A stretch of 64,000 nt of DNA from a virus (lineage: Duplodnaviria; Heunggongvirae; Uroviricota; Caudoviricetes), in IMG/VR virus record IMGVR_UViG_3300033463_000034; one strand, given 5' to 3'. How positions within the stretch are numbered: position 1 is the stretch's first letter; each line of letters opens with the position of its first letter. Both the position numbers and the translations under genes were made by a program. The notes under the pieces are model-generated. The model had not been told where the DNA came from. It saw nothing but the letters and a program-made list of their open reading frames with translations, and ran no database searches. Of this stretch, positions 4,757-39,688 are shown piece after piece.

Positions 4757-7067
4757 TGATATTTTAAATGAGTTAAGTACAAACTTTATTGAATATGCTG
4801 TTGCAGTTAACACAGATCGTGCTATTCCAGATGCGACTTGTGGTTTAAAACCAGTAGCCCGTAGAATATTATGGGGAGCTTTTGAAAAAGGTTATACATT
4901 TAGTAAACCTCATGTTAAATCAGCAAAAATTGTCGGGGATGTAATGGGTACTTATCATCCACATGGAGATTCTTCTATATATGGAGCTCTTGTTAGATTA
5001 TCTCAACCTTGGGTTATGAGATATCCACTTATAGATTGGCATGGATCTAATGGAAATATTGATGGTGATGGTCCAGCCCATATGCGTTATACAGAAGCAA
5101 GATTATCAAAACTTGCGGAAGATGGTATGTTAAAAGGAATTAAAAAAAGAAATGTAGAATTTATTCCTAATTATTCTGAAGATGCAGAAGAACCAATTAC
5201 ATTACCTGCTATATTCCCTAATTTATTATGTAATCCTAACACAGGTATAGGGGTTGCAATGGCTTGTAATTTTGCTCCACATAACTTATGTGAAGTAGCT
5301 ACAGCTATATATGATTATATTGATGGTAAAGAACCAATGTTACCAGGTCCTGATTTTCCAACAGGTGGATTAATTATTAATATGAATGATATTCCATCTA
5401 TTATGAAAACAGGACATGGTAGTGTAAAAGTTAGAGCTAAATATAAAACAGAAGGTCAGAATATAGTATTTTATGAAATACCATATGGAACTTCCACTGA
5501 AGCACTTATTGCGGAAATAGGTGAAGTAGCAGAAAACGACATTCCTGATATAATAAATATTAGAAATGAAAGTAATAAAAAAGGTTTAAGAATAGTTGTA
5601 GAGTGTGCAAAAGGAATTAATCCAGATACAATAGCTAATAAATTATTTACAAAAACTGATTTACAAAGTAGTTTTTCATATAATCAAGTTGCTTTAATAA
5701 ACAAAACTCCAACTGAAGTTAATTTAAAAGATTGTATTAAATTATACTTAGATCATAATATTGAATGTTTAATTAAAGAAACTAAATTTGATTTACAAGC
5801 TGCAGAGGCCCGTCTTGAAGTTGTAGAAGGTTTAATAAAAGCATTAGAAGATATAGATAATATAATTGCATTTATTAAAAAGTCTGAATCAAGTGCTGCC
5901 GCAAAAGATGGTTTAGTTAAAGAATATAAATTCACAGAAGCTCAAGCTAAGTCTATTGTAGCTATGAGATTAGGTAGTTTAGCTAAATTAGAAAAAATTG
6001 AATTAAATGAAGAAAAGGCTCAATTAGAACATGATATAGATGGTTATAAATATTTATTAAATAATAAAGATGCTCAAGTTTCTACTATAAGAACTAGATT
6101 ATCTGATTTAGTTAAGAAGTATGGAGATAAGAGAAGAACTGAATTAGCACAAATTGATATTCCAAAAGAAGATAAAGAAATAATTACTGTTATTCCTGAA
6201 GATGTAGTTGTTATGGTATCTCAAACAGGAGATGTTAAGCGTATTCCTAAATCAAGTTTTAGAACACAAAGAAGAAATGGTAAAGGTATCAAATCTGAAG
6301 ATGATGCAATATTAACTACTATAAAGACTAATACTATTGATAATTTATTAGTATTTACTAACAAAGGAAAAATGTATAAAATATTAGTTGATAAACTTCC
6401 TATTGGAACAAATGTTTCAAAAGGACAAAATTTAGCTAGTTTAGTGAATATGGATGCTGATGAAAAAGTTATAGCGGCATCAAGTTTAGATAGAGATACG
6501 GATGCAGAATATGTAGTGTTTATAACTAAACAAGGTTTATTTAAGAAAACTTTATTAAGTGAATATAAATCAATTAAAAAATCAACAGGTACTCAAGCTA
6601 TTAAATTAAAAGATGGAGATAGTATTGCTAATGTAGTATTTATGAAAGAAGAAGAATTTATGATATTTACTAAATTAGGTATGGCTATCAGATTTACAAC
6701 AAAAGATATTGCAGCAATAGGTAGAGTTACTAGTGGAGTTAAAGGTATTAATTTAATAGATGGCGATGAAGTAATTTGCGGATTCCCTATATTAGATGGT
6801 AAGACTGAAATTGCTATTATTGGTAAAAATGGCTATGGAAAGAAAACTAGTTTAAATGAATTTACTTGCCAAGGTAGAGGCGGAAAAGGATTAAAATTAG
6901 GCGCGGAAATAGCAGGTGCTGCAATGATAGGGGCTGAAGATAATCTTCTATTAATTGGTAAACCAAATAGCATATGTATAGATAGTAGTGAATTACCTTT
7001 ACAAGGTAGAGCTACACTTGGTGTAAAATTAGCACAAAATGAAATTAAAAATGTTGTTATTGTATAA
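4746..7067 (+). CDS. type II topoisomerase subunit A (GyrA/ParC-like, as in T4 gp52)
   Basis: AIPDATCGLKPVARRILW and YHPHGD, with a catalytic Tyr region. Overlaps the upstream subunit by 11 nt. Confidence 0.85.
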   Translation: MQNNDILNELSTNFIEYAVAVNTDRAIPDATCGLKPVARRILWGAFEKGYTFSKPHVKSAKIVGDVMGTYHPHGDSSIYGALVRLSQPWVMRYPLIDWHGSNGNIDGDGPAHMRYTEARLSKLAEDGMLKGIKKRNVEFIPNYSEDAEEPITLPAIFPNLLCNPNTGIGVAMACNFAPHNLCEVATAIYDYIDGKEPMLPGPDFPTGGLIINMNDIPSIMKTGHGSVKVRAKYKTEGQNIVFYEIPYGTSTEALIAEIGEVAENDIPDIINIRNESNKKGLRIVVECAKGINPDTIANKLFTKTDLQSSFSYNQVALINKTPTEVNLKDCIKLYLDHNIECLIKETKFDLQAAEARLEVVEGLIKALEDIDNIIAFIKKSESSAAAKDGLVKEYKFTEAQAKSIVAMRLGSLAKLEKIELNEEKAQLEHDIDGYKYLLNNKDAQVSTIRTRLSDLVKKYGDKRRTELAQIDIPKEDKEIITVIPEDVVVMVSQTGDVKRIPKSSFRTQRRNGKGIKSEDDAILTTIKTNTIDNLLVFTNKGKMYKILVDKLPIGTNVSKGQNLASLVNMDADEKVIAASSLDRDTDAEYVVFITKQGLFKKTLLSEYKSIKKSTGTQAIKLKDGDSIANVVFMKEEEFMIFTKLGMAIRFTTKDIAAIGRVTSGVKGINLIDGDEVICGFPILDGKTEIAIIGKNGYGKKTSLNEFTCQGRGGKGLKLGAEIAGAAMIGAEDNLLLIGKPNSICIDSSELPLQGRATLGVKLAQNEIKNVVIV

Positions 7068-20854: not shown

Positions 20855-23800
20855 ATGAATAAAAGATTTGAAGTTCATTCACATACATATTATAGTAATT
20901 TGCGTTTATTGGATTGTATTAATCGTCCTAAAGATTTAATAAATCGTGCGATTGAATTAGGATTATCTGGAATAGCCATTACAGATCATGAATGTATTAG
21001 TTCGCATCCAGAAATAAACTTTTATCAATCTGAAATAGAACAAGAACATCCTGATTTTAAAATAGCACTAGGGAATGAAATATATTTAACTGATGATAGA
21101 GAAAAAGGACAAAGATATTATCACTTTATTTTAATAGCAAAAAATAAAGAAGGTCATAGAGCATTAAGAGAATTATCTTCAAGAGCATGGATGAATAGTT
21201 ATTGGGATAGAGGTCTTGAAAGAGTACCAACATTAAAAAGTGATTTAGAAGAAATATTAAAAAAATATCCTAATAGTTTAATTGGAACAACAGCATGCTT
21301 AGGTGGAGAATTATCAGTTAATACATTAAATTTAATTAGAAGTGAAACAACAGGAGATGAAAATGGTGCGGTAACTGCACATAATAATATAGTAAATTTT
21401 TTATTATGGTGTAAAGAAGTATTTGGTAAAGACAATTTTTATATAGAATGTGCGCCAGGTGCTAGCCGCGATCAAGTGTTAGTTAATAAAAGATTTCCTG
21501 CTATTGCAAAAGCATTTGGATTAAAAATGGTAATAGGTTCAGATGCTCATTATCTTAAAAAAGAAGATAGATATGTTCATAAAGCATATCTTAATTCTAA
21601 AGGTGGAGAGCGTGAAGTAGATGAATTTTATGAATATGCATATCTACAAGATAATGAAGAAATAAAAAATAATTTATATGCATCTCAATTTAGTAATGAA
21701 TTTATAGAAGAAATGTTTAATAATAGTTATGAAATATATGAGAAAATAGAAAAATTTAGTTTGGCTCATGCACAAACAATTCCAAAAGTAGAAGTAGAAG
21801 ATTATCCAAAAATTAAAGTTGGAGAACTAGAAAAACAAGAATTTCCTATTTTATCTAGTATGTTAGAATCAGAAGATAAAATAGAAAGATATTGGGTTAA
21901 TCAATGCTTTAATAAATTAAAAGAAATTAATTTATATAATAATGAATATTGTCATAGATTAGAAGAAGAAGCTGATATAAAAAGAACAATTAGTGAAAAA
22001 TTAGGAACTAATATGTTTGCATATCCAGTAACATTACAACATTATGTTGATTTATTCTGGGAATGTGGTAGTATAGTTGGAGCAGGAAGAGGTTCAAGTT
22101 GTTCTGGTTTAAATCATTATCTTTTAGGTATAACTCAATTAGATCCTATTAAATGGAGTCTTCCTTTCTGGAGATATTTAAACAAAGAGCGTGTTGAATT
22201 AGGAGATATAGATTTAGATTTATGTCCAAGTAAACGTCCTAAAATTTTAAATGAAATAAAAAAAGAAAGAGGACAAAAATTTAATAAAGATATAGATGAA
22301 TTGAGTAGAAAAAATTTAGGTTGTACTTTAATAGCAACATTTGGAACAGAAGGAACAAGATCTACAATTTTAACTGCTTGCCGCGGATATAGAAGTGAAG
22401 ATTTTCCAGATGGTATTGATGTTGATACAGCTCAATATTTATCTTCATTAATTCCTAGTGAGCGTGGATTTTTATGACCACTATCTGATGTTATTAATGG
22501 AAATGAAGATAAAGAAAGAAAACCTATAAAAACTTTTATAAATGAAGTTAATCAATTTCCTGGATTATTAGATATAATGCTAGGAATAGAAGGTTTAGTA
22601 AATAAAAGAAGTAGTCATGCTTCAGGAGTTATATTATTTGATGAAGATCCATATGAGTTCGGTTCATTTATGAGAACTCCAAAAGGAGAAGTTATAACAG
22701 CATATGATCTTCATATGTGTGAAGCATGTGGTATGACAAAATATGACTTTTTAGTAACAGAAGTTCAAGATAAATTGGCGGAAGCAATTAGAATGTTACA
22801 AGATTATGGAGAAATTGAAAGTGATTTAACATTAAGAGAAGTATATGATAAATATTTTCATCCAAATGTTTTACCTATTGAAGAGGATAAATATTGGAAA
22901 GTTATTCAAGAAAATAATATATTAAATTTATTTCAATTTGATTCAGAAGTTGGTAGTCAAGCAGCTAAAAAAATTAAGCCAACAAATATGATGGAATTAG
23001 CAGATGCAAATGGTTTAATGAGATTAATGACTGCGGAAAAAGGTCAAGAATCTCCAATGGATAAATATATTAGATTTAAGAATAATATTAATTTATGGTA
23101 TAAAGAAATGGATGAATATGGTTTAACAAAAGAAGAACAAAAAGTATTAGAGCCATATTTTAAAAGTTCACATGGTGTTCCACCATCACAAGAACAATTA
23201 ATGAGAATGTTAATGGATGAAAATATTTGTAATTTTAGCTTAAAAGATGCAAACGCCGCGAGAAAAATTGTAGGTAAAAAACAAATGAGTAAGATCCCTG
23301 GATTAAGACAACAAGTATTAGATCAAGCTAAAAGTCCATGTTTAGGTAATTATGTTTGGAAATGTGGTATCGGTCCACAAATGGGTTATTCATTTAGTAT
23401 TATTCACGCTCTTGCATATAGTTTTATAGGTTTTCAAACTGCCTATATAGCAACAAAGTGGAATCCTATATATTGGAATACAGCATGTTTAATAGTAAAT
23501 AGCGGAAGTCTTGAAGAAGAAAGTGATTTTGAAGAAGATGAAGATGGATTTGTTGTAGAGAAAAAAGAAAAGACAACAGATTATAGTAAAATAGCAAAAG
23601 CATTAAGTGATATTATAAATAAAGGAATAAAAGTTAGTTTAGTAGATATAAATAAATCAGATTATAGTTTTGAACCAGATGTTGATAATAATGAAATATT
23701 ATTTGGAATGAAAGCATTAAGTAATGTAGGAGGTCCAATAATAGAACAAATTAAAGCTGGTCGTCCATATGCAGGAATTGCAGATTTTATGGTTAAATGT

Positions 23801-24808
23801 CCATTAAATAAAAGTGCAATGATAAGTTTAATTAAAGCGGGGGCTTTTGATAAAATAGATAATAAAAATGCGAAAGAAGCAAATGTTGAACCTAGATTAT
23901 GGGTTATGACATATTATTTATCTAAAGTGTGTGATGCAAAAAAAAGATTAACTTTACAAAATTTTAATGGTTTATTACAACATAATTTAATTCCTGAAGA
24001 ATTAGATTTACAAAAAAGAGTATTTAATTTTAATAAATATTTAAAAGCAAATCAAAAAGTAGGAAAATATTATGTATTTAATCAACCTTGTGAAGATTTT
24101 TATAATAAATATTTTGATTTAGATCAGTTAGAAGTAATAAATGGTATTACATGTATTCTTCAAACAAGATGGGATAAAATATATCAAGATATAATGGGAA
24201 CAGCTAGAGATTATTTACAAGTACATCAAGATGAAATGTTAAAGAAATTTAATACAATGTTATTTAAAGAATGTTGGGATAAATATGCACAAGGAAATAT
24301 TTCTGCGTGGGAAATGGAATCTTTATGTTTTTATTATCATGAACATGAATTAGCTCATATTAATAATTTAAAATATGGATTAACAAATTTCTTTGATTTA
24401 TCTCCATCTCCAGAAATTGATACAATGTTTAAAAGAAATGGTAAAGAAATTCCTATATTTAAAACTTTTAAAATAGTTGGAACAGTTATTAATAAAAATG
24501 ATAATAAAAATAGTATAACTTTATTAACAACAAATGGTATTGTTATTGTTAAATTTACAAAAGAATATTTTGCAATGTTTAATAGACAATTAAGTGAAAT
24601 GGGAGAAGATGGAACTAAACATGTTATTGAAAAAGGTTGGTTTACAAGAGGAACTAAAGTAATGATAACAGGTTTTAGAAGAGATGATACTTTTGTAGCA
24701 AAAACTTATACACGAACAGCAACTCATCAATTATATAAAATAGAAAAAGTATTTGAAAATGGAGATATGGAATTAACTCATGAAAGAGGAAATAATAATG
24801 AAGAATAG
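20855..24808 (+). CDS. DNA polymerase III alpha-family replicative polymerase (PHP domain plus pol core plus OB), about 1317 aa; in-frame TGA at 22478
   Basis: RBS AGAGGAGGA upstream. PHP motif HSHTYYS...ITDHE. The two track ORFs are in the same frame and joined by TGA. Confidence 0.75.
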
Positions 24809-25678: not shown

Positions 25679-25757
25679 TTTATATAAGCTAAAAATAAAA
25701 TAATATAGAGGGTAATTTTAACCACTCGAAATAATTTATATACTGAGGAGGTTGACT

Positions 25758-28010
25758 ATGAAAGTCATAAAACGTGACGGTCGTATTGTAGAATTCGATC
25801 CTACTAAAATCCATAACGCAATTTTAGCAGCTTTTCAAAGTGTTGATGGAGAAATTACTGATTATGCAAAAGATAAAGCTGAAAATATAGCAAGTTATAT
25901 TGAAGGATATTATTTAGATGTTGATGAAACACCTGGGATAGAAGATATCCAAGATTTAGTTGAAAAAGGATTAATGGCAACTAAAAGAAAAGATGTAGCT
26001 AAAGCTTATATATTATATAGAGAAGAAAGAAATAAAAAAAGACAATTAAAAACTTCTTTAATGCAAAATGTAAAAGAAAAAATTGAAGCTTCAGATGTAC
26101 AAAATCAAAATGCTAATGTTGATGAATATTCATTTGGTGGAAGAATGGGTGAAGCCCGCAGTGAAGTAATGAAAGATTATGCACTTAATTATATTGTATC
26201 TGATATGGCTAAACAAAATCATTTAAATAATGAAGTATATATCCATGATTTAGATTCATATGCTGTTGGTATGCATAACTGTTTAACCGTACCTTTTGAT
26301 CATTTATTATCACATGGTTTTAATACTAGACAAACAGATGTTCGTCCAGCTCGTTCAATTAATACTGCATTTCAACTAGTAGCAGTTATATTCCAATTAC
26401 AATCACTTCAACAATTTGGTGGAGTTAGTGCAAGTCATTTAGATTGGACTATGGTACCATATGTTCGTATGAGTTTTTATAAACATTTTCAAGATGGTTT
26501 AAAATATATTTCACCAGATCCATATTATAGTGGAGATGATTTTAATAGTGATATGTCTATTGAAGATGAGCAATATAAGAAATATCCAAAAGCATATAAA
26601 TATGCAATGGATATGACTGAAAAAGAATTAAATCAAGCTGTTCAAGGTATGTACCATAACTTAAATACATTACAATCTAGAAGCGGAAATCAATTACCTT
26701 TTACTTCAATTAATTATGGTACTTGTACTTTACCAGAAGGTAGAATGGTTACAAAAGCATTATTAGAAGGTAGTATTGAAGGTGTTGGTAAAGTTAGAAA
26801 AACTCCAATATTCCCATGTAGTATATTCCAATGTATGAATGGTGTTAATCGTAAACATGGAGATCCAAACTATGATTTATTTAAATTAGCACTTAAATCA
26901 ACAGCTCAAAGATTATATCCAAACTATGTTAATGTAGATTGGTCTGTAAATGCGGGTTATGATAAAAACGACCCTAAAACATATGTTTCTACAATGGGAT
27001 GTCGTACATATAATGGAGCAGATATAAATGCTGAACCTGGAACTAATCCACAAACTAAAGATGGCCGCGGAAATATTTGCCCTGTTACAGTTATTATGCC
27101 TACTTTAGCAATGGAAGCTAAAAAATTAGCTGATGAAGAGTATGAAGCTACAGGTCAAGCTGATATTATTGATGCTTTTATGTCTTTGTTAGATAAAAAA
27201 ATTCATGAAGCAAAAGATATGCTTATTGAAAGATATAATTATATTATCAGCCAAAGTCCTAATGGAGCAAAATTTATGTATGAAAATGGTTGTATATTAG
27301 GTTATGATGGTAAAACAGTAGAAAGTGCTATGAAACATGGAACATTAGCTCTTGGTCAAATAGGTCTTGCAGAAACACTTCAAATATTAATTGATAAAGA
27401 TCACACAACACCTGAAGGTATGGAATTAGCAAAAAAAATAGAACAATTATTTAAAGATAGATGTGCTGAATTTAAAAAAGAATATAAATTAAATATTGGT
27501 GTATATTATACTCCAGCTGAAAATTTATGTTATACAGCTATGAAAAAATTTAAAAACAAATATGGAATAATTCCTAATGTAAGTGATAGAGATTACTTCA
27601 CTAATTCAATTCATGTTCCAGTTTGAAAAGAAATGAGTCCTTTTGATAAAATAGATATTGAAAGTCAATTAACTGGATATAGTAATGCAGGATGTATTAC
27701 TTATGTTGAATTAGATGGCGGAGTTAAAAATAATTTAGATGCATTAGAAACAATTGTAAATTATGCTATTGATAAAGATATACCTTATTTTGCAATTAAT
27801 GTTCCAAATGATACCTGTTTAGATTGTGGATATACAGATGAATTTAATGATAATTGTCCAATGTGTGGAGGTACACATATTCAACAATTGCGTAGAGTAA
27901 CAGGATATTTAACTGGAGATTATAAAACTGCTTTCAATAAAGGAAAACAACAAGAAACTGAACAAAGAATAAAACATCAAAAATTTAATGGAGATTGTTC
28001 TCATGATTAG
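25758..28010 (+). CDS. nrdD: anaerobic ribonucleoside-triphosphate reductase (class III); in-frame TGA at 27627
   Basis: RBS GAGGAGG upstream. ATP cone at the N-terminus. C-terminal glycyl-radical motif RRVTGYL with a Cys cluster CLDCG...CPMCG. Confidence 0.8.
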
Positions 28011-30374: not shown

Positions 30375-30403
30375 TTGAAAATATTAAAAAAATATATTAT
30401 AAT
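30375..30403 (+). promoter_or_regulatory. promoter TTGAAA-17-TATAAT
   Basis: Hexamers at 30375-30380 and 30398-30403. Confidence 0.5.
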
Positions 30404-30431: not shown

Positions 30432-30683
30432 ATGAGATATTTAATTGAAGTTACAGAAAATTATAGAGTAGATAATGAAGCAGAAGCAAAAACTTTAATT
30501 GAAGAAGCTAAAGCTGGAAATAATTATATTGTTAAAAAATACTCTTCTCAATATAAAGAAAGAAAACAAAAGGGAGAAGTTGTAGATGCTTGGTATAAAG
30601 TTGTTTTAGTAAAAAGTTTTACAAGTGAAAAAGAACCTGATGCTCAAATTGAAATAGAATATAAAGAAGGAAGTGCTTTTTAA
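30432..30683 (+). CDS. hypothetical protein
   Basis: RBS AAAGGAGGAA upstream. Confidence 0.45.
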   Translation: MRYLIEVTENYRVDNEAEAKTLIEEAKAGNNYIVKKYSSQYKERKQKGEVVDAWYKVVLVKSFTSEKEPDAQIEIEYKEGSAF

Positions 30684-30685
30684 TT

Positions 30686-31156
30686 ATGTTTGGAATAGAT
30701 ATATTAGGAAGATATGAAACTAAATTTATTAAATATAAAAAATTAAATGAATTAGCAATAGAACCAACTAGAGGAAGTGCTACAGCAGCTGGCTACGATC
30801 TTTATGCTGCGATTAGCGATCCTGTAAAGATTCCCGCACATTCAACAGTAAAGATAGGAACAGGATTAGCTTTTGCATTACCTAATAACACTTTCGCAGC
30901 AATATTTGCTAGAAGCGGATTAGCTACTAAAGAAGGATTAAGACCAGCAAATTGTGTTGGAGTATGTGATAGTGATTATCGTGGAGAATATATAGTAGCA
31001 TTACATAACGATACAGATAGTGAAAAATTTATTAATCCAGGTGAAAGGATTGCTCAAATGATTTTAATACCATATATTCCAATGATATTTGAAGAAGTAG
31101 AAGAACTTTCAGATACTAATCGTGGTAATGGAGGATTTGGAAGCACAGGAAAATAA
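30686..31156 (+). CDS. dut: dUTP diphosphatase
   Basis: dUTPase motifs GSATAAGYDLYA, RSGLA, GVCDSDYRGE and the C-terminal GGFGSTG. Confidence 0.8.
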   Translation: MFGIDILGRYETKFIKYKKLNELAIEPTRGSATAAGYDLYAAISDPVKIPAHSTVKIGTGLAFALPNNTFAAIFARSGLATKEGLRPANCVGVCDSDYRGEYIVALHNDTDSEKFINPGERIAQMILIPYIPMIFEEVEELSDTNRGNGGFGSTGK

Positions 31157-31178
31157 TATATAAGAAAGGGGTTTTATT

Positions 31179-31265
31179 ATGTTATTAAATATTTTATGTT
31201 TTTTAGGTGGTACTATTACAGGTGCTATTCTTATGGCAGCAATTGCCGCAGGTAAAGAAAGATAA
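31179..31265 (+). CDS. small membrane peptide
   Basis: 28 aa hydrophobic peptide MLLNILCFLGGTITGAILMAAIAAGKER. Confidence 0.3.
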   Translation: MLLNILCFLGGTITGAILMAAIAAGKER

Positions 31266-31286
31266 AAAAAGAAAGGGAAAATTTTT

Positions 31287-32738
31287 ATGGATTTAATTTT
31301 ATTATTTAGTATTATAGGAGGAATACTTTTATTAATTATATTGTTAACATCAAGTTATGTTAAATGCCCTCCTGATATGGTATTTATTATTTCAGGTTTA
31401 AGAAAAAAACCTAGAGTTATTATTGGAAAAGCTACTCTTAGAATTCCATTCTTTGAAAGAGTAGATAAATTAACCTTAGAGTTAATACAAATTGATGTTC
31501 AAGCTCATAATGTTCCAACATCTGATTTTATTAATGTAGATGTTGATGCTGTTGCAAATGTAAGAATTCCAAATAATCCAGATTTAATTCAAGTTGCAGC
31601 AAGACATTTTTTAAATCAAACTTCTAAATATATTGCAGATAATGTACAACAAGTACTTGAAGGAAATATGCGTGAAATTATAGGACAAATGAATTTAGTT
31701 GCTCTTGTAAATGATAAACAATTATTTTCTCAAAAGATACAAGAAAATGCAAGTGATGATATAAAAAATATAGGATTGGAAATTGTTAATTTAAATGTTC
31801 AAAGTTGTACTGATGATAATCAAGCTATTGAAAATTTAGGAATTGATAATTTAGTTAAGATACAAAAGGCAGCTAAAATTGCAAAAGCTCAAGCTGAAAA
31901 AGAAATTAAAGTTGCGGAAGCAGCCGCTGACGAAGAAGGAGCTCGAGCTCGTGCAGAAGCAGATGCTAAAATAGCTGAACAACAAAAAAATTTACAACTT
32001 AAAAAAGCAGAATATAAAATCGAACAAGATAAAAAGAAAGCTGATGCAGATGCCGCATATGAAATACAAAAGGCAGTTCAACAAAAAACAATTAATGAAA
32101 ATAATGTAGAAGCAGAAGTTGCTAAAACTGAAAAGTTAACCGCTTTAAAACAAAAAGAAGTTGCTTTAAAAGAACAAACTTTGGAAGCAGAAATTAAAAA
32201 GCAAGCTGATGCTGAAAGATATGCTGCGGAAATTCAAGCTGAAGTTGATAAAACTCGTGCTATTAAAGCCGCTGAAGCTGAAGCTCAAGCAAGAATAGCT
32301 CGTGCTGAAGCTGAAAAAGAAGCTAATGTAAAAGAGGCAGAAGGTATTCGTGCAAAATTACAAGCTGAAGCTGATGGTAAAAAAGCCATATTACTTGCTG
32401 AAGCAGAAGGTGTTCGTGCCAAAGCATTAGCTGAAGCTGAAGGTATTGAAAAGAAAGCAGAAGCTCAAAAGAAAATGGGTGAAGCATCTATCGTTGAAAT
32501 GATTATGAATGCATTACCACAAGTAGCTAAAGAAGTATCTGCTCCATTAGCAAATGTAGATAATATTACAATGTATGGCGACCAATCAACTAAACTTATT
32601 GAAAATAATACTCAAAAAATAGATCAAGTATTAAAAGTGGCTCAAGATAGTTTAGGACTTGACCTTAAGAGTCTTATAGCAGGGTTTGCCGCAAACAAAA
32701 TATTAGACAATAAAAAACCTGGAGACTTAGACAAATAA
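31287..32738 (+). CDS. SPFH/band-7 flotillin-like protein with long Ala/Glu-rich coiled coil
   Basis: N-terminal TM, SPFH domain, then about 200 aa of AEAEA-type repeats as in FloT/YqiK flotillins. Confidence 0.65.
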   Translation: MDLILLFSIIGGILLLIILLTSSYVKCPPDMVFIISGLRKKPRVIIGKATLRIPFFERVDKLTLELIQIDVQAHNVPTSDFINVDVDAVANVRIPNNPDLIQVAARHFLNQTSKYIADNVQQVLEGNMREIIGQMNLVALVNDKQLFSQKIQENASDDIKNIGLEIVNLNVQSCTDDNQAIENLGIDNLVKIQKAAKIAKAQAEKEIKVAEAAADEEGARARAEADAKIAEQQKNLQLKKAEYKIEQDKKKADADAAYEIQKAVQQKTINENNVEAEVAKTEKLTALKQKEVALKEQTLEAEIKKQADAERYAAEIQAEVDKTRAIKAAEAEAQARIARAEAEKEANVKEAEGIRAKLQAEADGKKAILLAEAEGVRAKALAEAEGIEKKAEAQKKMGEASIVEMIMNALPQVAKEVSAPLANVDNITMYGDQSTKLIENNTQKIDQVLKVAQDSLGLDLKSLIAGFAANKILDNKKPGDLDK

Positions 32739-32753
32739 TCTAAGTCTTTTTTG
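32722..32753 (+). terminator. intrinsic terminator
   Basis: Stem agacttag/ctaagtct followed by a T6 run. Confidence 0.55.
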
Positions 32754-32779
32754 ATGAAATAAAAAATCTTTATTATACT
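32751..32779 (+). promoter_or_regulatory. promoter TTGATG-17-TATACT for the polysaccharide-modification operon
   Basis: Hexamers at 32751-32756 and 32774-32779. Confidence 0.45.
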
Positions 32780-32856
32780 ATAATTAGGGACTGAATAAAA
32801 TAATAAAAATAATCAAATTTTTATAATATAATAGAATATAAAAAGGAGAATATATT

Positions 32857-33810
32857 ATGAATACTTACCCTATTGATATCGTTGTAACTTTTTTAGATAA
32901 TTCGGATAAAAACTGACAAAAAGAATTTTACAAATATAAAAAAGAAGAAATAAAAAACAGAATTACTCAAGCAGAAAATTCTCAAGCATTTGGAAAAGAT
33001 AGATTTCGTGAATGAGATGTGTTCAAATATTGGTTTAGAGGAGTTGAAAAGAATTGTTCATGAGTAAACAAGATATTTTTAATAGTTCAAAGTGAAACAC
33101 AAATTCCTAAATGATTAAATAAAAATCATCCAAAATTAAGAATTGTTTATCATGAAGAATATATTCCTAAAGAATTATTACCTACTTTTAATGATAGACC
33201 TATTGAATTTTATACTTGTTTTATTAAAGATTTATCTAAAAATTATATTAGAAGTAACGATGATTGTTATTTTTTAAATCCAATTCCTGAAGATATGTTT
33301 TTTAAAAATGATAGACCAGTATTACCAGATAATCAAAGACCATTTGAATTTTTTGAGGCTAAAGGTTCAGGTGCAACATTTTGAGGAGCATTAAATAATA
33401 ATTTAGAATTAGAAAAAGAATATTTAAATGGAAAAAATTATACTTATGGTATAGCTCATTTACAAATGGCATGTGATAAAAATTTTGAATTAAAAATAAT
33501 TAATAATCATAAAGAAAAATTTTTATCTGCTTTATCTTATAGTCGTTTTAGAAGTGAAAAACATTATACAATTTATTTATTTGATGATTTAGAAAGAATA
33601 TGTGAAAACGCAATTTTAGATAAAAACATTTTTAATACAAGTTGTTATTGTTATTTAAATAAAAATTTAAATTTTGAAGATATAAAAAATAAATTATGTG
33701 TTTGCTTAAATGATACAGATAAAGCAAATTCAGATTATTCTTTAATTAAAAAAAATATGCAAAAATTTTTTGAAGATAAATTTCCTAATAAATCTTCTTT
33801 TGAAATTTAA
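32857..33810 (+). CDS. Stealth-family hexose-1-phosphoryl transferase (capsule/teichoic-acid phosphotransferase-like); 5 in-frame TGA
   Basis: Stealth CR1-like PIDIVVTFLDNSDKNW(TGA)QKEF and a CR2-like segment. Confidence 0.55.
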
Positions 33811-33823
33811 TAAAGGAGGCTAT

Positions 33824-34483
33824 ATGAAAATATTAGTATTAAGCTGTGATAAAAATGAAGATACTTTTAAAGCATTTCATCATTGTATGGAAAAATATTA
33901 TCCAAATCATCCTGAAGTAATATATGCAACAGAAACATTAAAAAATCCATATTATAAAACAATAAGTAAAAATTATCCTTTAAATTTATGAACTAAAAGA
34001 ATAAGAGAAACTTTAAAAGAAATTGATGATGATAAAATATTATTAATGATAGATGATTGTTTTATTAGAGAACCTGTTGATACAAAAAGAATTCAATATG
34101 CAATAGATAATTTAAAAGGAAATATTGCAATGTTTAATTTTGAAAAATCATTTGATAATACCGATGAAGAAACTAATCTAATAGATTTTAAAAAAAGAAA
34201 ACATGGATCTTCTTATGAAGTTAGTTTGTTATGTGGATTATGACAAAAAGATAAATTAATAAAAGTTATTTCTACTGATAGTGATCCATGATCAATAGAA
34301 TATGGTCAAAAAAATTATAATTTTGATTATTATATTAATAGTGGTGATTATATTATTGATTGAGGATATAAAACTTGGAAACCAGCAGGTATTTTTAAAG
34401 GTTTATGATGTAAAGAAGTGGTGCCATTTTTTGAAAAGGAGGGTATCAAGATTGATTATGACAAACGAGGATTTTCTAATTAG
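33824..34483 (+). CDS. hypothetical protein, possible sugar-transferase accessory (5 in-frame TGA)
   Basis: RBS AAAGGAGG upstream. No firm motif. Confidence 0.35.
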
Positions 34484-35045
34484 TATTATAACTCCTTATT
34501 ATAATACATTAACACAAACAAAAAAATTAGCAAAAATATTAGAACCACAACTTACAGAAGAAATAGAATGAATAATTATAGATGATGGATGTCATGAAAA
34601 AAAATTAGATAATATAAAAGCAAAAGTTATTCATCTCGAAAATAATAGCGGCGGAGGTAGTGTCCCTAGAAATGTCGGTTTAGATAATGCTAAAGGAAAA
34701 TATATATTATTTATAGATAGTGATGATATGATCAAAACTAATTATATAGAAACTATAATAGATAAAATTAATCAAGAAGATTTTGATTATTGTTACTTTG
34801 GTTGAGAATCACATACATTTTCTATTATAATAACAGATGAACCTCCAGAATGAAATTGTTGTATATGAGATTGTATTTATAAAAAAGAATTAATTGGAAA
34901 TGTTAGATTTGATCCAAAATTACGAGTAGGGGAAGACTTAGATTTTAATAAAAAAGTTAGAAAAGGTAAAAAAGCTCATATTCATAAAATTTTATATTAT
35001 TATAATGATACTCCTAACTCCTTAACAAAACGAGGTGACAAATAA
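34458..35045 (+). CDS. family 2 glycosyltransferase (GT-A fold); 4 in-frame TGA
   Basis: ISIITPYYN, IIIDDG and GKYILFIDSDD (DxD motif). Confidence 0.7.
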
Positions 35046-36145
35046 TGCATTTTACTAATATTTATTATTTTTATTATCTTAATGTTATAGGTGGAACAGA
35101 AACTTTTTTATATCAATTAGCAAAAAAATATAAAGATTATGATTTAACTATTATATATCGTTATGCAGATGCTAAACAAGTTGAAAGATTAAAAAAATAT
35201 GTTCGATGTATAAAATTTACAGGGCAACAAATTGAATGCGATAGAGCGTTTTTTAATTATGGTGCAGATATTATAGGAAATGTTCATGCTAAAGATTATT
35301 ATTTAGTTGTTCATGCAGATTATGAAGCAGTTGCAAAAACAAATCCTAATTTTATGGCAAGTTTTTCTCCAAAAATAAATCATTTTATTGGAGTTAGTGA
35401 TTTAGCTTGCAAAGCGTTTACAAAAGTAACTGGAAAATTATGTGAAAAAAGTTATAATCCAATTGAAATAGAAAAACCTAAAAAAGTATTAAATCTTATT
35501 AGTGCAACAAGATTATCAAAAGAAAAGGGTAAACATAGAATGGAACAACTTGCGGCCGCACTTGATAAAGAAGGAATACCTTATATATGAACAATATTTA
35601 CAACAGATACTAATGCTATTGATAATCCTAATATAGTATATATGAAACCTAGATTAGATATTACTAATTTTATTGCTAATGCAGATTATCTTGTACAATT
35701 ATCAGATAATGAAGGATATTGTTATTCGGTTGTAGAAGCATTGGGTATGGGAACTCCAGTAATAGTAACTCATTGTCCTGTATTTGATGAAATAGGTTTA
35801 AAAAATAAAGAAAATTGTTTCTTATTAGATTTTGATATGAAAAATATTCCTATTAAAGAAATTTATGAAAGTGAATTAAAATTTACTTATACGCCTCTTC
35901 CAGATAGTTGAGATAAATTTATTATAAAAAACCCTTCAACATATAAAGAAGAAATTAATACAATATATACGGTTCAAGCATTAAAAACTTATGAAGAAAA
36001 TCATATTGAAGATGGACAATTACATATGATTCCAAATCCTGGATTTAAATGAGATGTTGATTGTGAACGTATGAGAGTATTGACTGGAGATAATGATAGG
36101 CATTTAAAATTCGTAAAAGTAGTTAGTGAAAGAAAAAAAGACTAA
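35045..36145 (+). CDS. GT-B-fold glycosyltransferase (GT4-like); 3 in-frame TGA
   Basis: N-terminal VIGGTETF and C-terminal EGYCYSVVEALGMGTPVIVT. Confidence 0.6.
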
Positions 36146-36195: not shown

Positions 36196-36224
36196 GTAGT
36201 TAAGAAATATAGGAGTTGATTAAT

Positions 36225-36722
36225 ATGATATTATTATCATTAGATTTAAGTACAAAAAGTTCAGGTTGGGCAATATTTAAAGATGGTTTATTAATGGATT
36301 CTGGATGTATTACCTCTTCATCTACAGATTTGTTAAAAAGAATTAATGTAATGATAAATGGATTAAAAACAATAGTAGAACAATATCAACCTAATAGAAT
36401 AATTGCGGAAGAAGTAAGACCTGAAAATGGAATGCAAAATCTTAAAACTCATCGTGCTCTTATGTGATTACAAGGTGGCATTGCTTTAATGATTTATGCT
36501 TATAATAAAAATTTAGAATTAGAATTAATATATCCTAGTTCTTGAAGGGCGGCAATTGGTATTAAAACTGGGCGCGGAATTAAAAGAACTACATTAAAAG
36601 AAAAAGATATACAATTTGTAAAAGAAAATTATAATCTTGATGTTAATGATGATGAAGCTGATGCAATTTGTATAGGATATGCAAATTGTCATGATATAGA
36701 AACTGAAATTAATTGAGAATAA
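36225..36722 (+). CDS. ruvC: RuvC-like Holliday junction resolvase; 4 in-frame TGA
   Basis: RBS AGGAG upstream. LSLDLSTKSSGWAIF start, catalytic-type acidic residues EE and DDEADA, similar to phage RuvC. Confidence 0.65.
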
Positions 36723-36732
36723 AAAATTTTAC

Positions 36733-36775
36733 ACTTTATGATACTTTTATCATAAAGTTATTTTTTTTTATATTT
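36733..36775 (+). terminator. intrinsic terminator for the + strand module
   Basis: Stem cactttatgata/tatcataaagt followed by a T9 run. Confidence 0.65.
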
Positions 36776-36799
36776 CCTGCCAAATTTTAAGCATAAAAA

Positions 36800-36838
36800 A
36801 ATAGCACAGATATAAAAATCTGTGCTTTTTTATTTTTA
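36800..36838. terminator. bidirectional terminator between convergent modules
   Basis: Stem agcacagat/atctgtgct flanked by T-runs on both strands. The minus-strand gene stops at 36836. Confidence 0.6.
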
Positions 36839-39688
36839 TAATTTTGTTTGTACTTGTATTGCCGCAATATTCATAGTTCCACTTATAGTTAAAGGTATTG
36901 AAATAGATTTTATCATAAAATCTCCATGAATATCTGCATCTATAGATTGAACTGTAATTCTAGTATTAGGTTCAAGATGGTAAATTGGAATAACTGATAA
37001 ACTAATACTACTATTATAATCAGTATAATCTCATAATAATTCTTTAATTCTATTAAAACAACTATTATTTAATCCACCAATTATTAACATATTATATAAA
37101 TTTTCACTCATTAAATAATAATCTTGTCCTCTTTTTTCACATTCTTCAATCTTAGATTGAGTATCTGATTGATTATTTTCTATAATTACAATATCAGGAA
37201 TATCAGATTCAAAAATACAATTATATTCATTTCTATTTTCAACAATACTTCTTCTTCCTATATTTGAAACATTAAATTGACTAATTGCCGCCTCGCTATC
37301 TATAAAATCTAATCAATAATTTACATCTCAAGGATTTAATTTAACTTCTTGATAAAAATCACCAGTATAAATAACATCTCCTGTTTCGCTATCTATGTAA
37401 CTATTTGCTTGTAAATTATATAATTTTGGTCATTCTGCAGCAAGTTCAGCATAATAATAATTATTTGCTAAACCTAATGGTTCAGAAGAAACTCCATCTA
37501 AATATAATTCACTTCTTCAATCTGTTGTTTTTACTTTTACTAATCTAGCTCCTTCATATTCTATATATTCAGGTTGAGATAATAAATAATTAGTTTTATT
37601 AGTTTCATAAGTTCTTTCTAAATTATTTAAAACTTCATTATAATTATTAATTAATTCTTGTTTATCGCTAATTTGATTTTCTAAATCATTATATGTATTA
37701 TCATAATCTATAAGAGCTTCATTTAACGGTATTAATGATTCTTCAGTTTCAAGTTTTTCATCAGTTCAATTTATAATATTATTATTATTTTGAATTATTT
37801 TATTATTAGCTCTATTATTTTCTTCTTGTAATTTTTCAATATCAGAATTTAAACTATCTATTTCAGATTGAATTTGGGCTCTTCTAACTGGATCTGTTTC
37901 ATGTTCTAATTCATCTTCTAATATTGCAATTTGATTTAATTTTTGAGTAATTAAATTAGAATTAGCATTTATTAATTCTTGTAATTCTACATTTTCTTCA
38001 GTAGCAGTATTTATTTGTGAAGTTAATAAATCTATTTGTTTATTTAATTGATTTCTAGGAATAATTCATTTAATATATTGATTATATAAATCAGTTTCTT
38101 GCTCTTTTAAATTATTTATTTGTATATTTATATTATCAATAATATCTAAATATCCCTGTTTTTCAATATCATATTCATTTTTTAAAATATTTAATTGATT
38201 AACTACAGTTTGATAATGAGCAGAACCAGGATTTAAACTTCATATATATTGTTTATTAGTACTTGTACTAATGTAAATAATATCATATTGACCAATATCA
38301 GGAAAATCATTTATATTATCATATTCTTCATAATAATATCCTTCAGGAGAAACATACATTTGTTTTTCCGCATCTCATTTATATATGATTCCTGTATTTT
38401 CGCTCATATAAAATAATTCTTCTACTCCAGGATAAGGAAATCTAGTTATATTACTATATTTAATTGGGCATTTAGCTTTTCTTAATCCATCAATAGGATC
38501 TATATAAAAAAATACTTCATATATATTTCCAATTTGAGGCTTTTTATCAATAACTAAATGATATCTTATAGGAATTTTTATATTATTTGTATCTTCTTTT
38601 ATACCTCATACAACATAATCATTTTTTATTCTATTATATTGAGGGCTATTTGAATAATTTGTTATTAATTTACCATCTAAAAAACTATATACTGATTTGC
38701 CTTTGGCAATATCAATTATATAATCATCATTTTTCATTTTATTTAATTCTACAGTAGCTTGAGTAGTATTAAGATAATCTTTTATTTCTTGTCATATAAA
38801 ATTACCTCATATGTCATAATAATATTCATAGTTACCTAATAAATTTTTTATTTTATCCAAGACAGTACAAACACTATCTCCAGCATTTGCAGTTAATTCA
38901 GATGGATAAATAAAATCTTCTAAAATAAAACCAACATTCATTCCATAAGAAAGTTCTTGAATTATTCCTCCAAATTGAATAGCTTCAACTTCATTCGTTG
39001 TATATAAATGACTATTATCTTTAGTTGCTAAATATAAAGGATTCTCTGCTGTTCATTTCATAACTGTTTTTATTTTATCATCTACATCATGAACAATAAT
39101 TCTAGCTAAATTTTCATTTCCAAAATGATTAACTATTTCTTTAATAATTTGAGATATTAAAGGTTTTTTTAATATAATTTGACCAGTTGAATCTTCAATA
39201 GTATCATAAGTATCTAGTTGAACTGCGGAAGTAATGGTTCCACCGCATTCGCCATTTAATAAACACATTTTATCTTTTAATTGAGCAGATAAAGTAGTTG
39301 CTTGCCCAACTCCAAAAGATACACTACAAGATGTAAAAATAAATAACCCTTGTGGATATCATAAAATAGGATAATCTGAATATTGATTAGTTTTATTTTC
39401 TATTCCTATTTCTAAATATACTTTTTTATTAATAGAAATTAAATTTTTTGTATCTGTAATTTTCCCTGTTGAAATATCTTTTACTGTCATATTTAAACTA
39501 CATGTTCTACGAATTGCGGAGTCACCGTTTAGAGAAACGGTTCCTCCAGTTGCAATTCCTTGGATTTCTTCTAATGGATTTTCATCTCAATCAAGTAAAG
39601 TTAATTTTACATATTGATTTTGTAATTTTTCAGTGTCTGCTAAATATAAAAATTTTTCATCTTGTAAATAAGGATAACTTTTTTTCAT
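36836..39688 (-). CDS. large virion structural protein (tail or baseplate) with central coiled coil, 951 aa; many in-frame TGA
   Basis: RBS GGAGG 7 nt upstream of ATG (complement 39686-39688). The frame was traced by hand to TAA at 36836-36838. Confidence 0.5.

Follow-up and report, generated by a model that had tools for sequence, protein, structure and literature searches.

The 64-kb stretch of DNA read from the IMG/VR virus record IMGVR_UViG_3300033463_000034, referred to below as the window, contains a gene for a flotillin (31287-32738, plus strand; 483 aa). The window is part of a tailed phage with a genome of about 130 kb from rumen or gut samples, which is virulent-looking and resembles the TGA-recoded ‘Agate’ phages. 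Judging from its sequence, the open reading frame (ORF) is a genuine FloT-type flotillin with every element of the flotillin architecture. The composite interpretation, according to which this is a genuine and functional accessory flotillin that is made early or midway through infection and acts as a membrane scaffold, is on balance probable, with ample room for doubt.

Domain architecture of the flotillin

The protein is predicted to begin with a transmembrane (TM) helix (residues 2-23; 31290-31355, plus strand), which is followed by a conserved YVKCPPD motif, an SPFH/Band_7 domain (residues 50-205; 31434-31901), an A/E-rich coiled coil formed by helices at residues 180-288 and 300-398 (31824-32480) and a Flot domain (PF15975; residues 362-430; 32370-32576) that includes an invariant KAEAQKKM...ITMYG segment. 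In Pfam, the Band_7/SPFH family (PF01145) is matched with an E-value of 5.9e-20 and 72.5 bits against a cut-off of 23.6, and the Flot family with an E-value of 1.5e-8 and 35.2 bits against a cut-off of 27. The hydrophobic N-terminus is kept in all phage and cellular homologues. The coiled coil comprises about 200 residues of the AEAEA type and is colinear with the coiled coil of human flotillin-1, its length differing among homologues.

The NCBIfam FloT model NF058507 aligns with the window protein over positions 49-476 of its 477 (E = 2e-84; 284.3 bits). The best matches among sequences of the PDB are the human flotillin-1 chains 9bq2_B and 9l3g_A (E = 1e-56, residues 25-344 and 371-434), and the match to human flotillin-1 improves to E = 2e-75 with a profile built from the phage homologues; the Flot region aligns to flotillin-1 residues 322-385. 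By contrast, the hflC equivalog model TIGR01932 gives 24.1 bits against a cut-off of 134.4, and the protein is thus neither HflK nor HflC. In the AlphaFold model of the monomer, the TM helix (residues 2-23) precedes an alpha/beta SPFH core (residues 31-176), the two long helices (180-288 and 300-398) and a helical C-terminus. Foldseek searches with this model placed chains of the flotillin-1/-2 cages on top (E = 1e-21, 410-447 columns), while stomatin, HflK/C, prohibitin and erlin were found among the lower matches. An earlier note on this DNA had proposed that the phage encodes a flotillin in which an SPFH domain is joined to a long coiled coil; Pfam, the FloT model, human flotillin-1 and the structure model all agree with this proposal, including the SPFH domain on which it turned.

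Selection, phylogeny and distribution

The pattern of nucleotide substitution indicates that the gene is functional and held by purifying selection. The ratio of nonsynonymous to synonymous substitution rates (dN/dS) against 11 orthologues is 0.12-0.26, and the differences from the flotillin of the sister strain L065 (L-numbers designate the fetched relative loci or contigs), 12 in 1452 nt, are all synonymous third-position changes. The identical protein is on record for at least seven contigs, and ten contigs were read. Close copies of the gene sit on IMG/VR contigs of 130-145 kb, and homologues with 69-96% identity are found on many contigs of 100-150 kb.

In a neighbour-joining tree of flotillins, the window's copy belongs to a monophyletic and exclusive phage clade, P1, comprising 22 sequences at 65-100% identity, to which the nearest cellular copies are those of Clostridia and Bacilli (54-60% identity). 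A second phage clade, P2, is carried by contigs of 100-200 kb with 31-43% GC and is interleaved with Clostridia-labelled sequences. The identity between P1 and P2 is about 47%, no higher than the identity of either clade with bacteria. Since the two phage clades are as distant from each other as they are from bacterial copies, and P2 is interleaved with Clostridia, at least two acquisitions of the gene are implied. All members of the window's clade have the cysteine of the YVKCPPD motif (Cys27, 31365-31367) just past the TM helix; alanine occupies this position in most P2 copies and in the cellular homologues that were inspected.

Phage flotillins are rare among isolates and recurrent in metagenomic large gut phages. 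A tblastn match was obtained in 9 of 50,697 deposited phage records, several of which are small fragments, and when the nucleotide sequence of the region was compared with deposited phages, only short fragments of the dUTPase and flotillin genes matched. The IMG/VR matches listed include at least 71 distinct loci, on contigs from about 50 kb up to 424 kb. Thus, the description of the gene as unusual in the earlier note holds for deposited records but not for metagenomic viral contigs, at least 70 distinct ones of which carry a flotillin.

Three contigs of 73-132 kb that are assigned to species-representative metagenome-assembled genomes (MAGs) in GTDB, L069 (CANPWX010000001.1), L070 (JAFRAK010000039.1) and L071 (CACYRE010000001.1), carry a phage-clade flotillin at 69-81% identity. 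They are labelled Bacilli or Erysipelotrichaceae, and the neighbouring genes are of phage type (dUTPase, SpoVG-like and DUF2829-like). These contigs are probably phage genomes misbinned into MAGs, and their taxonomic labels could be a hint at the phage host.

Comparison with cellular and phage SPFH proteins

The window flotillin has the same length and domain order (anchor, SPFH, A/E-rich coiled coil, Flot) as FloT/YuaG of Bacillus subtilis and the FloT-like proteins of Clostridia, and the chromosomal homologues of Clostridia and Bacilli are 45-60% identical to it. Unlike FloT/YuaG, it is encoded by a phage, belongs to a monophyletic clade of its own, scores 284 bits against the 700 of the FloT cut-off and has no adjacent NfeD-type gene. 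No match to NfeD or another membrane partner was found by Pfam and PHROG searches in the upstream 83-, 94- and 151-aa proteins, the dUTPase or a 28-aa ORF that precedes the flotillin. Loss of NfeD by the phage copy was considered and dropped, the inspected chromosomal loci of Clostridia being also devoid of an obvious NfeD neighbour; since these homologues lack it too, pairing with NfeD is not diagnostic for this subfamily of flotillins.

The dome formed by human flotillin-1 and flotillin-2 (9bq2, 9l3g) has the same layout of SPFH domain, first and second coiled coils and C-terminal part at about 29% identity, which suggests the same cage-type assembly for the phage protein. The latter would presumably be a homo-oligomer because a single gene is present. 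The human flotillins are anchored through acylation and a hairpin, whereas the phage protein is predicted to have a true N-terminal TM helix, and it contains about 26 extra coiled-coil residues (345-370) relative to human flotillin-1.

Among phage proteins, the SPFH ‘lipoprotein’ family phrog_200 matches residues 7-244 of the window protein (E = 5e-14), and the ‘flotillin family protein’ of csAssE-Sib matches residues 22-185 with 29% identity. Both matches are limited to the SPFH part, whereas the flotillin of the window is complete and also includes the coiled coil and the Flot domain. A similar gene of phage GIB1 has been noted as unexplained (PMC13239085). In the literature searched, phage-encoded flotillins appear in passing annotations only and no functional study of one was found; one phage is known to integrate into the host floA gene. 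Phage SPFH proteins have therefore already been annotated, and the window protein is a further member of the flotillin family in an unusual carrier. As accessory genes of host origin are common in large phages, the presence of a flotillin in one is in principle unsurprising.

The SPFH fold and the principle of a membrane-attached cage are also common to HflK/HflC-FtsH of Escherichia coli, stomatin, prohibitin, erlin and QmcA-YbbJ, among which HflK/C is the system with a classical phage link, the control of lambda CII by FtsH. The similarity of the window protein to HflK/HflC and the other SPFH cages is remote (hflC, 24 bits; QmcA, E = 3e-4), and it differs from them in a much longer coiled coil and a flotillin-specific C-terminus. 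The phage protein might nevertheless act as an HflK/C-like cage that sequesters a protein of the host membrane, for example a protease of the FtsH type or an abortive-infection effector bound to the membrane, and thereby protects phage proteins or disarms a defence. The cage architecture common to HflK/C-FtsH complexes (Foldseek matches 9cz2, 7wi3 and 9paw) speaks for such a function, as does the location of the gene, which is conditionally dispensable, in an accessory island of a type that often holds host-interaction genes. On the other hand, the protein is a flotillin and not a homologue of HflK/C (24 bits against the 134 of the hflC cut-off), no client has been identified, and searches of the PADLOC-DB v2 defence models gave no match at E <= 0.01 for the flotillin, the 28-aa peptide or the three upstream proteins. 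Nor is any partner conserved between the two phage clades: all-versus-all clustering of stop-to-stop fragments from 69 loci, in which many of the high-count clusters were shadow ORFs antisense to flotillin itself, yielded no neighbour family common to both. Sequestration of a host protein is thus judged unlikely. The same low probability is given to a takeover or counter-defence device in which SPFH cages made early in infection would enclose and neutralise a host component of this kind (an FtsH-type protease or an abortive-infection effector) or prevent premature lysis. If true, this would be the first case in which a virus of bacteria puts a flotillin cage to functional use, and it would account for at least two independent captures by large gut phages and for the purifying selection.

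Probable transcription unit and genomic context

The flotillin gene follows a conserved hypothetical gene for an 83-aa protein (30432-30683, plus strand), which has no Pfam match and is kept in syntenic relatives, and the dUTPase gene (30686-31156, plus strand; Pfam dUTPase, E = 2e-28; phrog_135, E = 4e-56). A promoter-like site, TTGAAA-17-TATAAT, which agrees with the consensus in 11 of 12 positions (30375-30403, plus strand), is located upstream of the 83-aa gene and is one of the two best promoter-like matches on the plus strand; it may represent the start of the unit. The ATG of the flotillin gene is preceded at a distance of 8 nt by a Shine-Dalgarno-like sequence, AAGAAAGGGA (31269-31278, plus strand). 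At its end lies a hairpin resembling an intrinsic terminator, AGACUUAGA / UCUAAGUCU (32723-32752, plus strand), with a centroid structure of -11.1 kcal/mol and a stem of 9-10 bp (32723-32747); the TAA stop codon of flotillin is within the loop, and a T-run follows. The hairpin forms on both strands and could be a bidirectional terminator-like element.

Downstream of the hairpin, a glycosylation cassette begins with a gene for a 317-aa sugar-phosphotransferase-like protein of the Stealth family (CR2/CR4; 32857-33810, plus strand), the start of which is preceded by an AT-rich spacer, a promoter-like site and its own Shine-Dalgarno sequence, AAAGGAG. This gene contains five in-frame TGA codons. 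The remaining part of the cassette (33824-36145, plus strand) consists of genes for a 219-aa protein of unknown function and for glycosyltransferases GT2 (34452-35045) and GT1 (35045-36145), all of which include TGA codons; the Stealth, GT2 and GT1 genes are whole only when TGA is read as sense. The 83-aa gene, the dUTPase gene, the 28-aa ORF and the flotillin gene therefore probably form a unit that is closed by flotillin and is transcribed apart from the TGA-rich cassette. The location of the gene between dUTPase and the polysaccharide genes, as given by the earlier note, is borne out by these family matches. The dUTPase gene differs from that of L065 at 50 of 471 nt, while the DNA flanking it is about 1% divergent (28 of 2399 nt upstream and 12 of 1452 nt in the flotillin gene), which points to a patch of recombination there.

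Syntenic relatives were fetched via the neighbouring clade-specific gene for a 151-aa protein. The conserved backbone consists of the genes for NrdD, peptide deformylase (PDF), the 151-, 94- and 83-aa proteins and dUTPase, followed by a variable slot and the genes for GT1 and a RuvC-like protein. Among the relatives obtained in this way, flotillin occupies the slot only in the L001 contig. In L220 and L221 the slot contains an epimerase-like gene and glycosyltransferase genes, in L223 an NTP-transferase gene, and in L224 genes for a deoxyribosyltransferase-like protein, serine hydroxymethyltransferase and an NTP-transferase, as named by reading the translations and not by family search. The remaining members of the flotillin clade hold the gene in differing contexts, which include L014, where no glycosyltransferase gene is adjacent, and others among L003-L013. 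The slot between dUTPase and the GT1 and RuvC-like genes (31157-36145 of the window) is a hypervariable accessory island, and flotillin is an optional cargo of this island rather than a core gene.

The second phage clade (L015-L064) has a strongly conserved synteny of its own, which reaches about 2.5 kb to the upstream side of flotillin and 3 kb to the downstream side. The putative order is metallophosphatase, small TM protein, Zn-ribbon protein, P-loop protein, second metallophosphatase and flotillin, past which a conserved protein of about 150 aa and then a protein that by eye resembles PIN/PhoH are encoded.

Given this arrangement, flotillin might serve to scaffold the membrane-associated glycosylation enzymes of the phage (Stealth, GT2 and GT1) in a microdomain where host surface polymers are modified. 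The cassette directly adjoins flotillin both in the window and in the relatives nearest to it (L001, L065 and L066), and GT1 is located downstream of flotillin in L002, L009, L010 and L068. However, the terminator-like hairpin and the separate Shine-Dalgarno and promoter-like sites part the two, the flotillin of L014 and the various contexts of L003-L013 do not follow this arrangement, and the neighbours of flotillin in the second clade are phosphatase, Zn-ribbon and P-loop genes, no glycosyltransferases being nearby. The glycosyltransferase genes are, in turn, retained in L220, L221, L223 and L224, where the slot has no flotillin. Because of the terminator and of the relatives that keep glycosyltransferases without flotillin, the proximity of flotillin to the polysaccharide genes is a matter of local synteny with no functional coupling, and a scaffold for glycosylation is weakened to a quite unlikely alternative.

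The upstream 28-aa ORF

A 28-aa hydrophobic ORF, MLLNILCFLGGTITGAILMAAIAAGKER (31179-31265, plus strand), is located between the dUTPase and flotillin genes and is possibly coding. Its ATG is preceded at a distance of 7 nt by a Shine-Dalgarno-like sequence, AAGAAAGGGG (31162-31171, plus strand), and the predicted peptide has a G/A/T-rich hydrophobic core and a basic tail. Apart from the window, the whole 130-nt spacer that contains the ORF was found in no more than three contigs, L065-L067, the flotillin of which is identical. In these three the third codon is TGA (ATG TTG TGA), and the recoded reading is needed for an intact ORF. In relatives with an 88-90% identical flotillin, only 27-33 nt separate the dUTPase and flotillin genes; the ORF is missing from L001 and L068, and no similar peptide was found in any fetched locus. 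Pfam, PHROG and PADLOC searches with the ORF gave no match. A possible origin by duplication of the 5' end of flotillin, which has a similar Shine-Dalgarno sequence and M-L-L...GG start, was rejected since there is no significant similarity. By these comparisons, the ORF is a recent, strain-limited insertion and not a conserved component of the locus. It may be at most a small accessory membrane peptide and may or may not be translated. The membrane peptide reported in the earlier note is therefore present as a hydrophobic ORF with a Shine-Dalgarno sequence, but not as a conserved companion of flotillin.

In principle, the ORF and flotillin could constitute a two-gene module in which the small peptide partners or regulates flotillin at the membrane, comparable to the pairing of NfeD with SPFH proteins. 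The two are encoded on the same strand, the ORF ends 21 nt upstream of flotillin and its strong Shine-Dalgarno sequence nearly matches that of flotillin; the peptide is TM-like and its C-terminus is basic, the sister strains differ from the window by three changes, of which two are synonymous, and an ORF of at least 28 codons would occur by chance in about 2.8% of random local 130-mers. Against this, the peptide is missing from all relatives with a flotillin of 90% identity or less, be they in the two phage clades or cellular loci, its only other carriers have TGA as the third codon, no family of Pfam, PHROG or PADLOC is matched, and 28 aa is far below the size needed for the OB-fold of NfeD. 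A module of this kind is quite unlikely, to the same degree as the scaffolding of glycosylation enzymes.

The carrier phage and its genetic code

The plus-strand half of the window encodes topoisomerase II/gyrase-like subunits, NAD-ligase, DnaB, PolIII-alpha, NrdD, PDF and dUTPase, while in the minus-strand half PHROG families of tail, tail-fibre and virion-structural proteins are matched and a lysin with a CHAP domain is encoded. No tRNA genes are present in the 64 kb, and hence no suppressor tRNA is encoded there; no terminase gene lies within the window, and no ribosomal or other housekeeping matches were found among the window ORFs scanned. The GC content is about 26%, and the GC skew flips its sign near 36 kb, where both gene modules converge. 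At 36200-36850, where the plus- and minus-strand modules meet, the GC and AT skews both switch sign, which is compatible with a terminus of replication or a point of transcription convergence.

Under the standard code, ORFs are sparse past 32.8 kb. When TGA is read as sense, the ORFs that reach 150 aa or more together encode 21.5k residues instead of 12.8k, and ORFs of 951, 805, 1198 and 839 aa appear; reading TAG as sense brings no coding gain in the window. TGA is a sense codon throughout 32842-64000 and as single codons in 1-31000. The TGA:TGG ratios in late genes are 15:0 and 23:3, while the replication genes mostly retain TGG and have TGA only occasionally. From the replacement of TGG by TGA and from the literature, we infer that TGA is read as tryptophan (Trp). 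Automatic assignment of the code per locus by the gain in ORF length was too noisy beyond the closest clade and was abandoned, so no claim is made on the TAG or TGA status of the relatives. The flotillin of L015 (same contig as L154) contains an in-frame TAG at position 6442, the sole case among 135 loci, which suggests a TAG-recoded phage whose flotillin carries a recoded codon.

Two enzymes of the replication half are interrupted under the standard code. PolIII-alpha (20855-24808) is split into parts of 540 and 743 aa, which one in-frame TGA joins into a frame of 1325 codons, and NrdD (25752-28010) into parts of 624 and 125 aa, which are united by a single in-frame TGA. The latter codon must be read through, because the glycyl-radical motif RVTGYL and the Zn-ribbon lie beyond it. 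It aligns with a variable position (Y/E/R) and thus demonstrates read-through but not, by itself, insertion of Trp. Thus, even these ‘early’ enzymes would need read-through of TGA for activity. The flotillin gene has neither TGA nor TGG codons, and for this reason it would be translatable either before or after a switch of the code.

The TGA-recoded ‘Agate’ gut phages, of about 127 kb, have been described from cattle and other animal guts; in these phages TGA encodes Trp and is concentrated in structural and lysis genes, the replication genes being largely spared, and the paper makes no mention of flotillin or SPFH (Borges et al., bioRxiv 10.1101/2021.08.26.457843). The window has in common with them the in-frame sense TGA, its enrichment in structural and lysis genes and the animal gut origin, and the relatives of the window are of 110-150 kb. 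The recoding pattern of the window fits the published Agate phages, the likeness being one of TGA usage, size and gut origin.

A membrane protein whose gene is free of recoded stops and whose position fits early or middle expression could also confer superinfection exclusion, by altering microdomains or membrane rigidity so that DNA translocation by later phages is blocked. The accessory, strain-variable distribution of the gene is typical of exclusion genes. However, no exclusion protein with this fold is known, the literature searched contained no example and mentioned SPFH proteins and superinfection exclusion together just once, incidentally, and a cage former of about 480 aa would be a costly means of blocking injection. 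This function is considered still less likely than the scaffolding of glycosylation enzymes. Finally, the notion that the window is a low-GC, Mollicutes-like bacterial chromosome or plasmid of code 4 with flotillin as an ordinary cellular gene, which draws on the GC content, the sense TGA, the gyrase-like, ligase, DnaB, PolIII-alpha, PDF and NrdD genes that bacteria also have and the three close copies in MAGs labelled Bacilli or Erysipelotrichaceae, is very improbable because of the virion genes (tail-fibre, tail, virion-structural and CHAP lysin), the concentration of TGA in late genes with TGG kept in replication genes, as in the published phage recoding pattern, and the relatives, which are IMG/VR viral contigs at 110-150 kb; the window also has no tRNA or scanned housekeeping match, and the ‘MAG’ contigs of 73-132 kb have phage gene content.

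Proposed role and significance

The favoured interpretation thus remains an accessory flotillin with a role as a membrane scaffold, and a specific mechanism can tentatively be proposed for it by analogy with cellular flotillins. The gene would have been captured from a Firmicutes-type host lineage and would be expressed along with nucleotide-metabolism genes, before the code switch or independently of it. The N-terminal helix would insert the protein into the cytoplasmic membrane of the host, and the coiled coils would drive its oligomerisation into membrane-attached domes or cages like those of cellular flotillins. These assemblies may supplement or replace the host's own flotillin scaffold, and membrane organisation, fluidity and integrity, and hence energy supply and envelope processes, would be preserved through a long infection until programmed lysis. 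Human flotillin assembles into a 44-mer membrane-attached dome (PMC13000311). In B. subtilis, PspA is recruited to the membrane by an SPFH protein (PMC8581546). DynA, a protein with a genetic link to flotillin, stabilises the membrane and delays lysis by phage (PMC8844932). The specific mechanism, in which the host scaffold is supplemented or replaced and membrane integrity is kept until lysis, is possible and clearly less secure than the composite interpretation.

Several points weigh against the interpretation as a functional early or middle scaffold. The score of 284.3 bits is below the curated equivalog cut-off of 700 bits in NCBIfam NF058507, and functional equivalence with B. subtilis FloT is therefore not established. 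The AlphaFold monomer is of moderate confidence (mean pLDDT, the predicted local distance difference test, of 63), which is to be expected when the monomer of a cage-forming protein is modelled from a shallow alignment. The timing of expression is read solely from the position of the gene, the missing TGA codons and the consensus-type terminator. The promoter scan performed no better than shuffled sequences (50 sites against 56.9 expected), and the missing TGA codons are weak evidence for timing because flotillins are almost free of Trp anyway (124 of 135 phage copies have none). In addition, flotillin is missing from the slot in four syntenic relatives (L220, L221, L223 and L224). Since the gene is dispensable there, any benefit of it is conditional, and a conditional benefit could equally arise from anti-defence, exclusion or the scaffolding of particular clients. 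The roles suggested in the earlier note, in which host membrane domains are remodelled for replication or assembly or membrane-associated defences are countered, are plausible, although no defence model is matched and no partner gene is conserved between the phage clades.

For annotation, the neighbourhood of the gene needs to be read with TGA as sense, and the 28-aa ORF should not be counted as part of a system. Some contigs of GTDB ‘species’ MAGs that are labelled Bacilli or Erysipelotrichaceae appear to be phages of this kind. A gene that recurs, has been captured at least twice and is under selection yet optional fits the profile expected of genes for host interaction or fitness. The role of flotillins in bacteria is debated, with proposals including a raft scaffold, a regulator of fluidity and an organiser of proteases or secretion, and a virus that keeps an intact flotillin provides a natural experiment on the contribution of this protein to a stressed cell.

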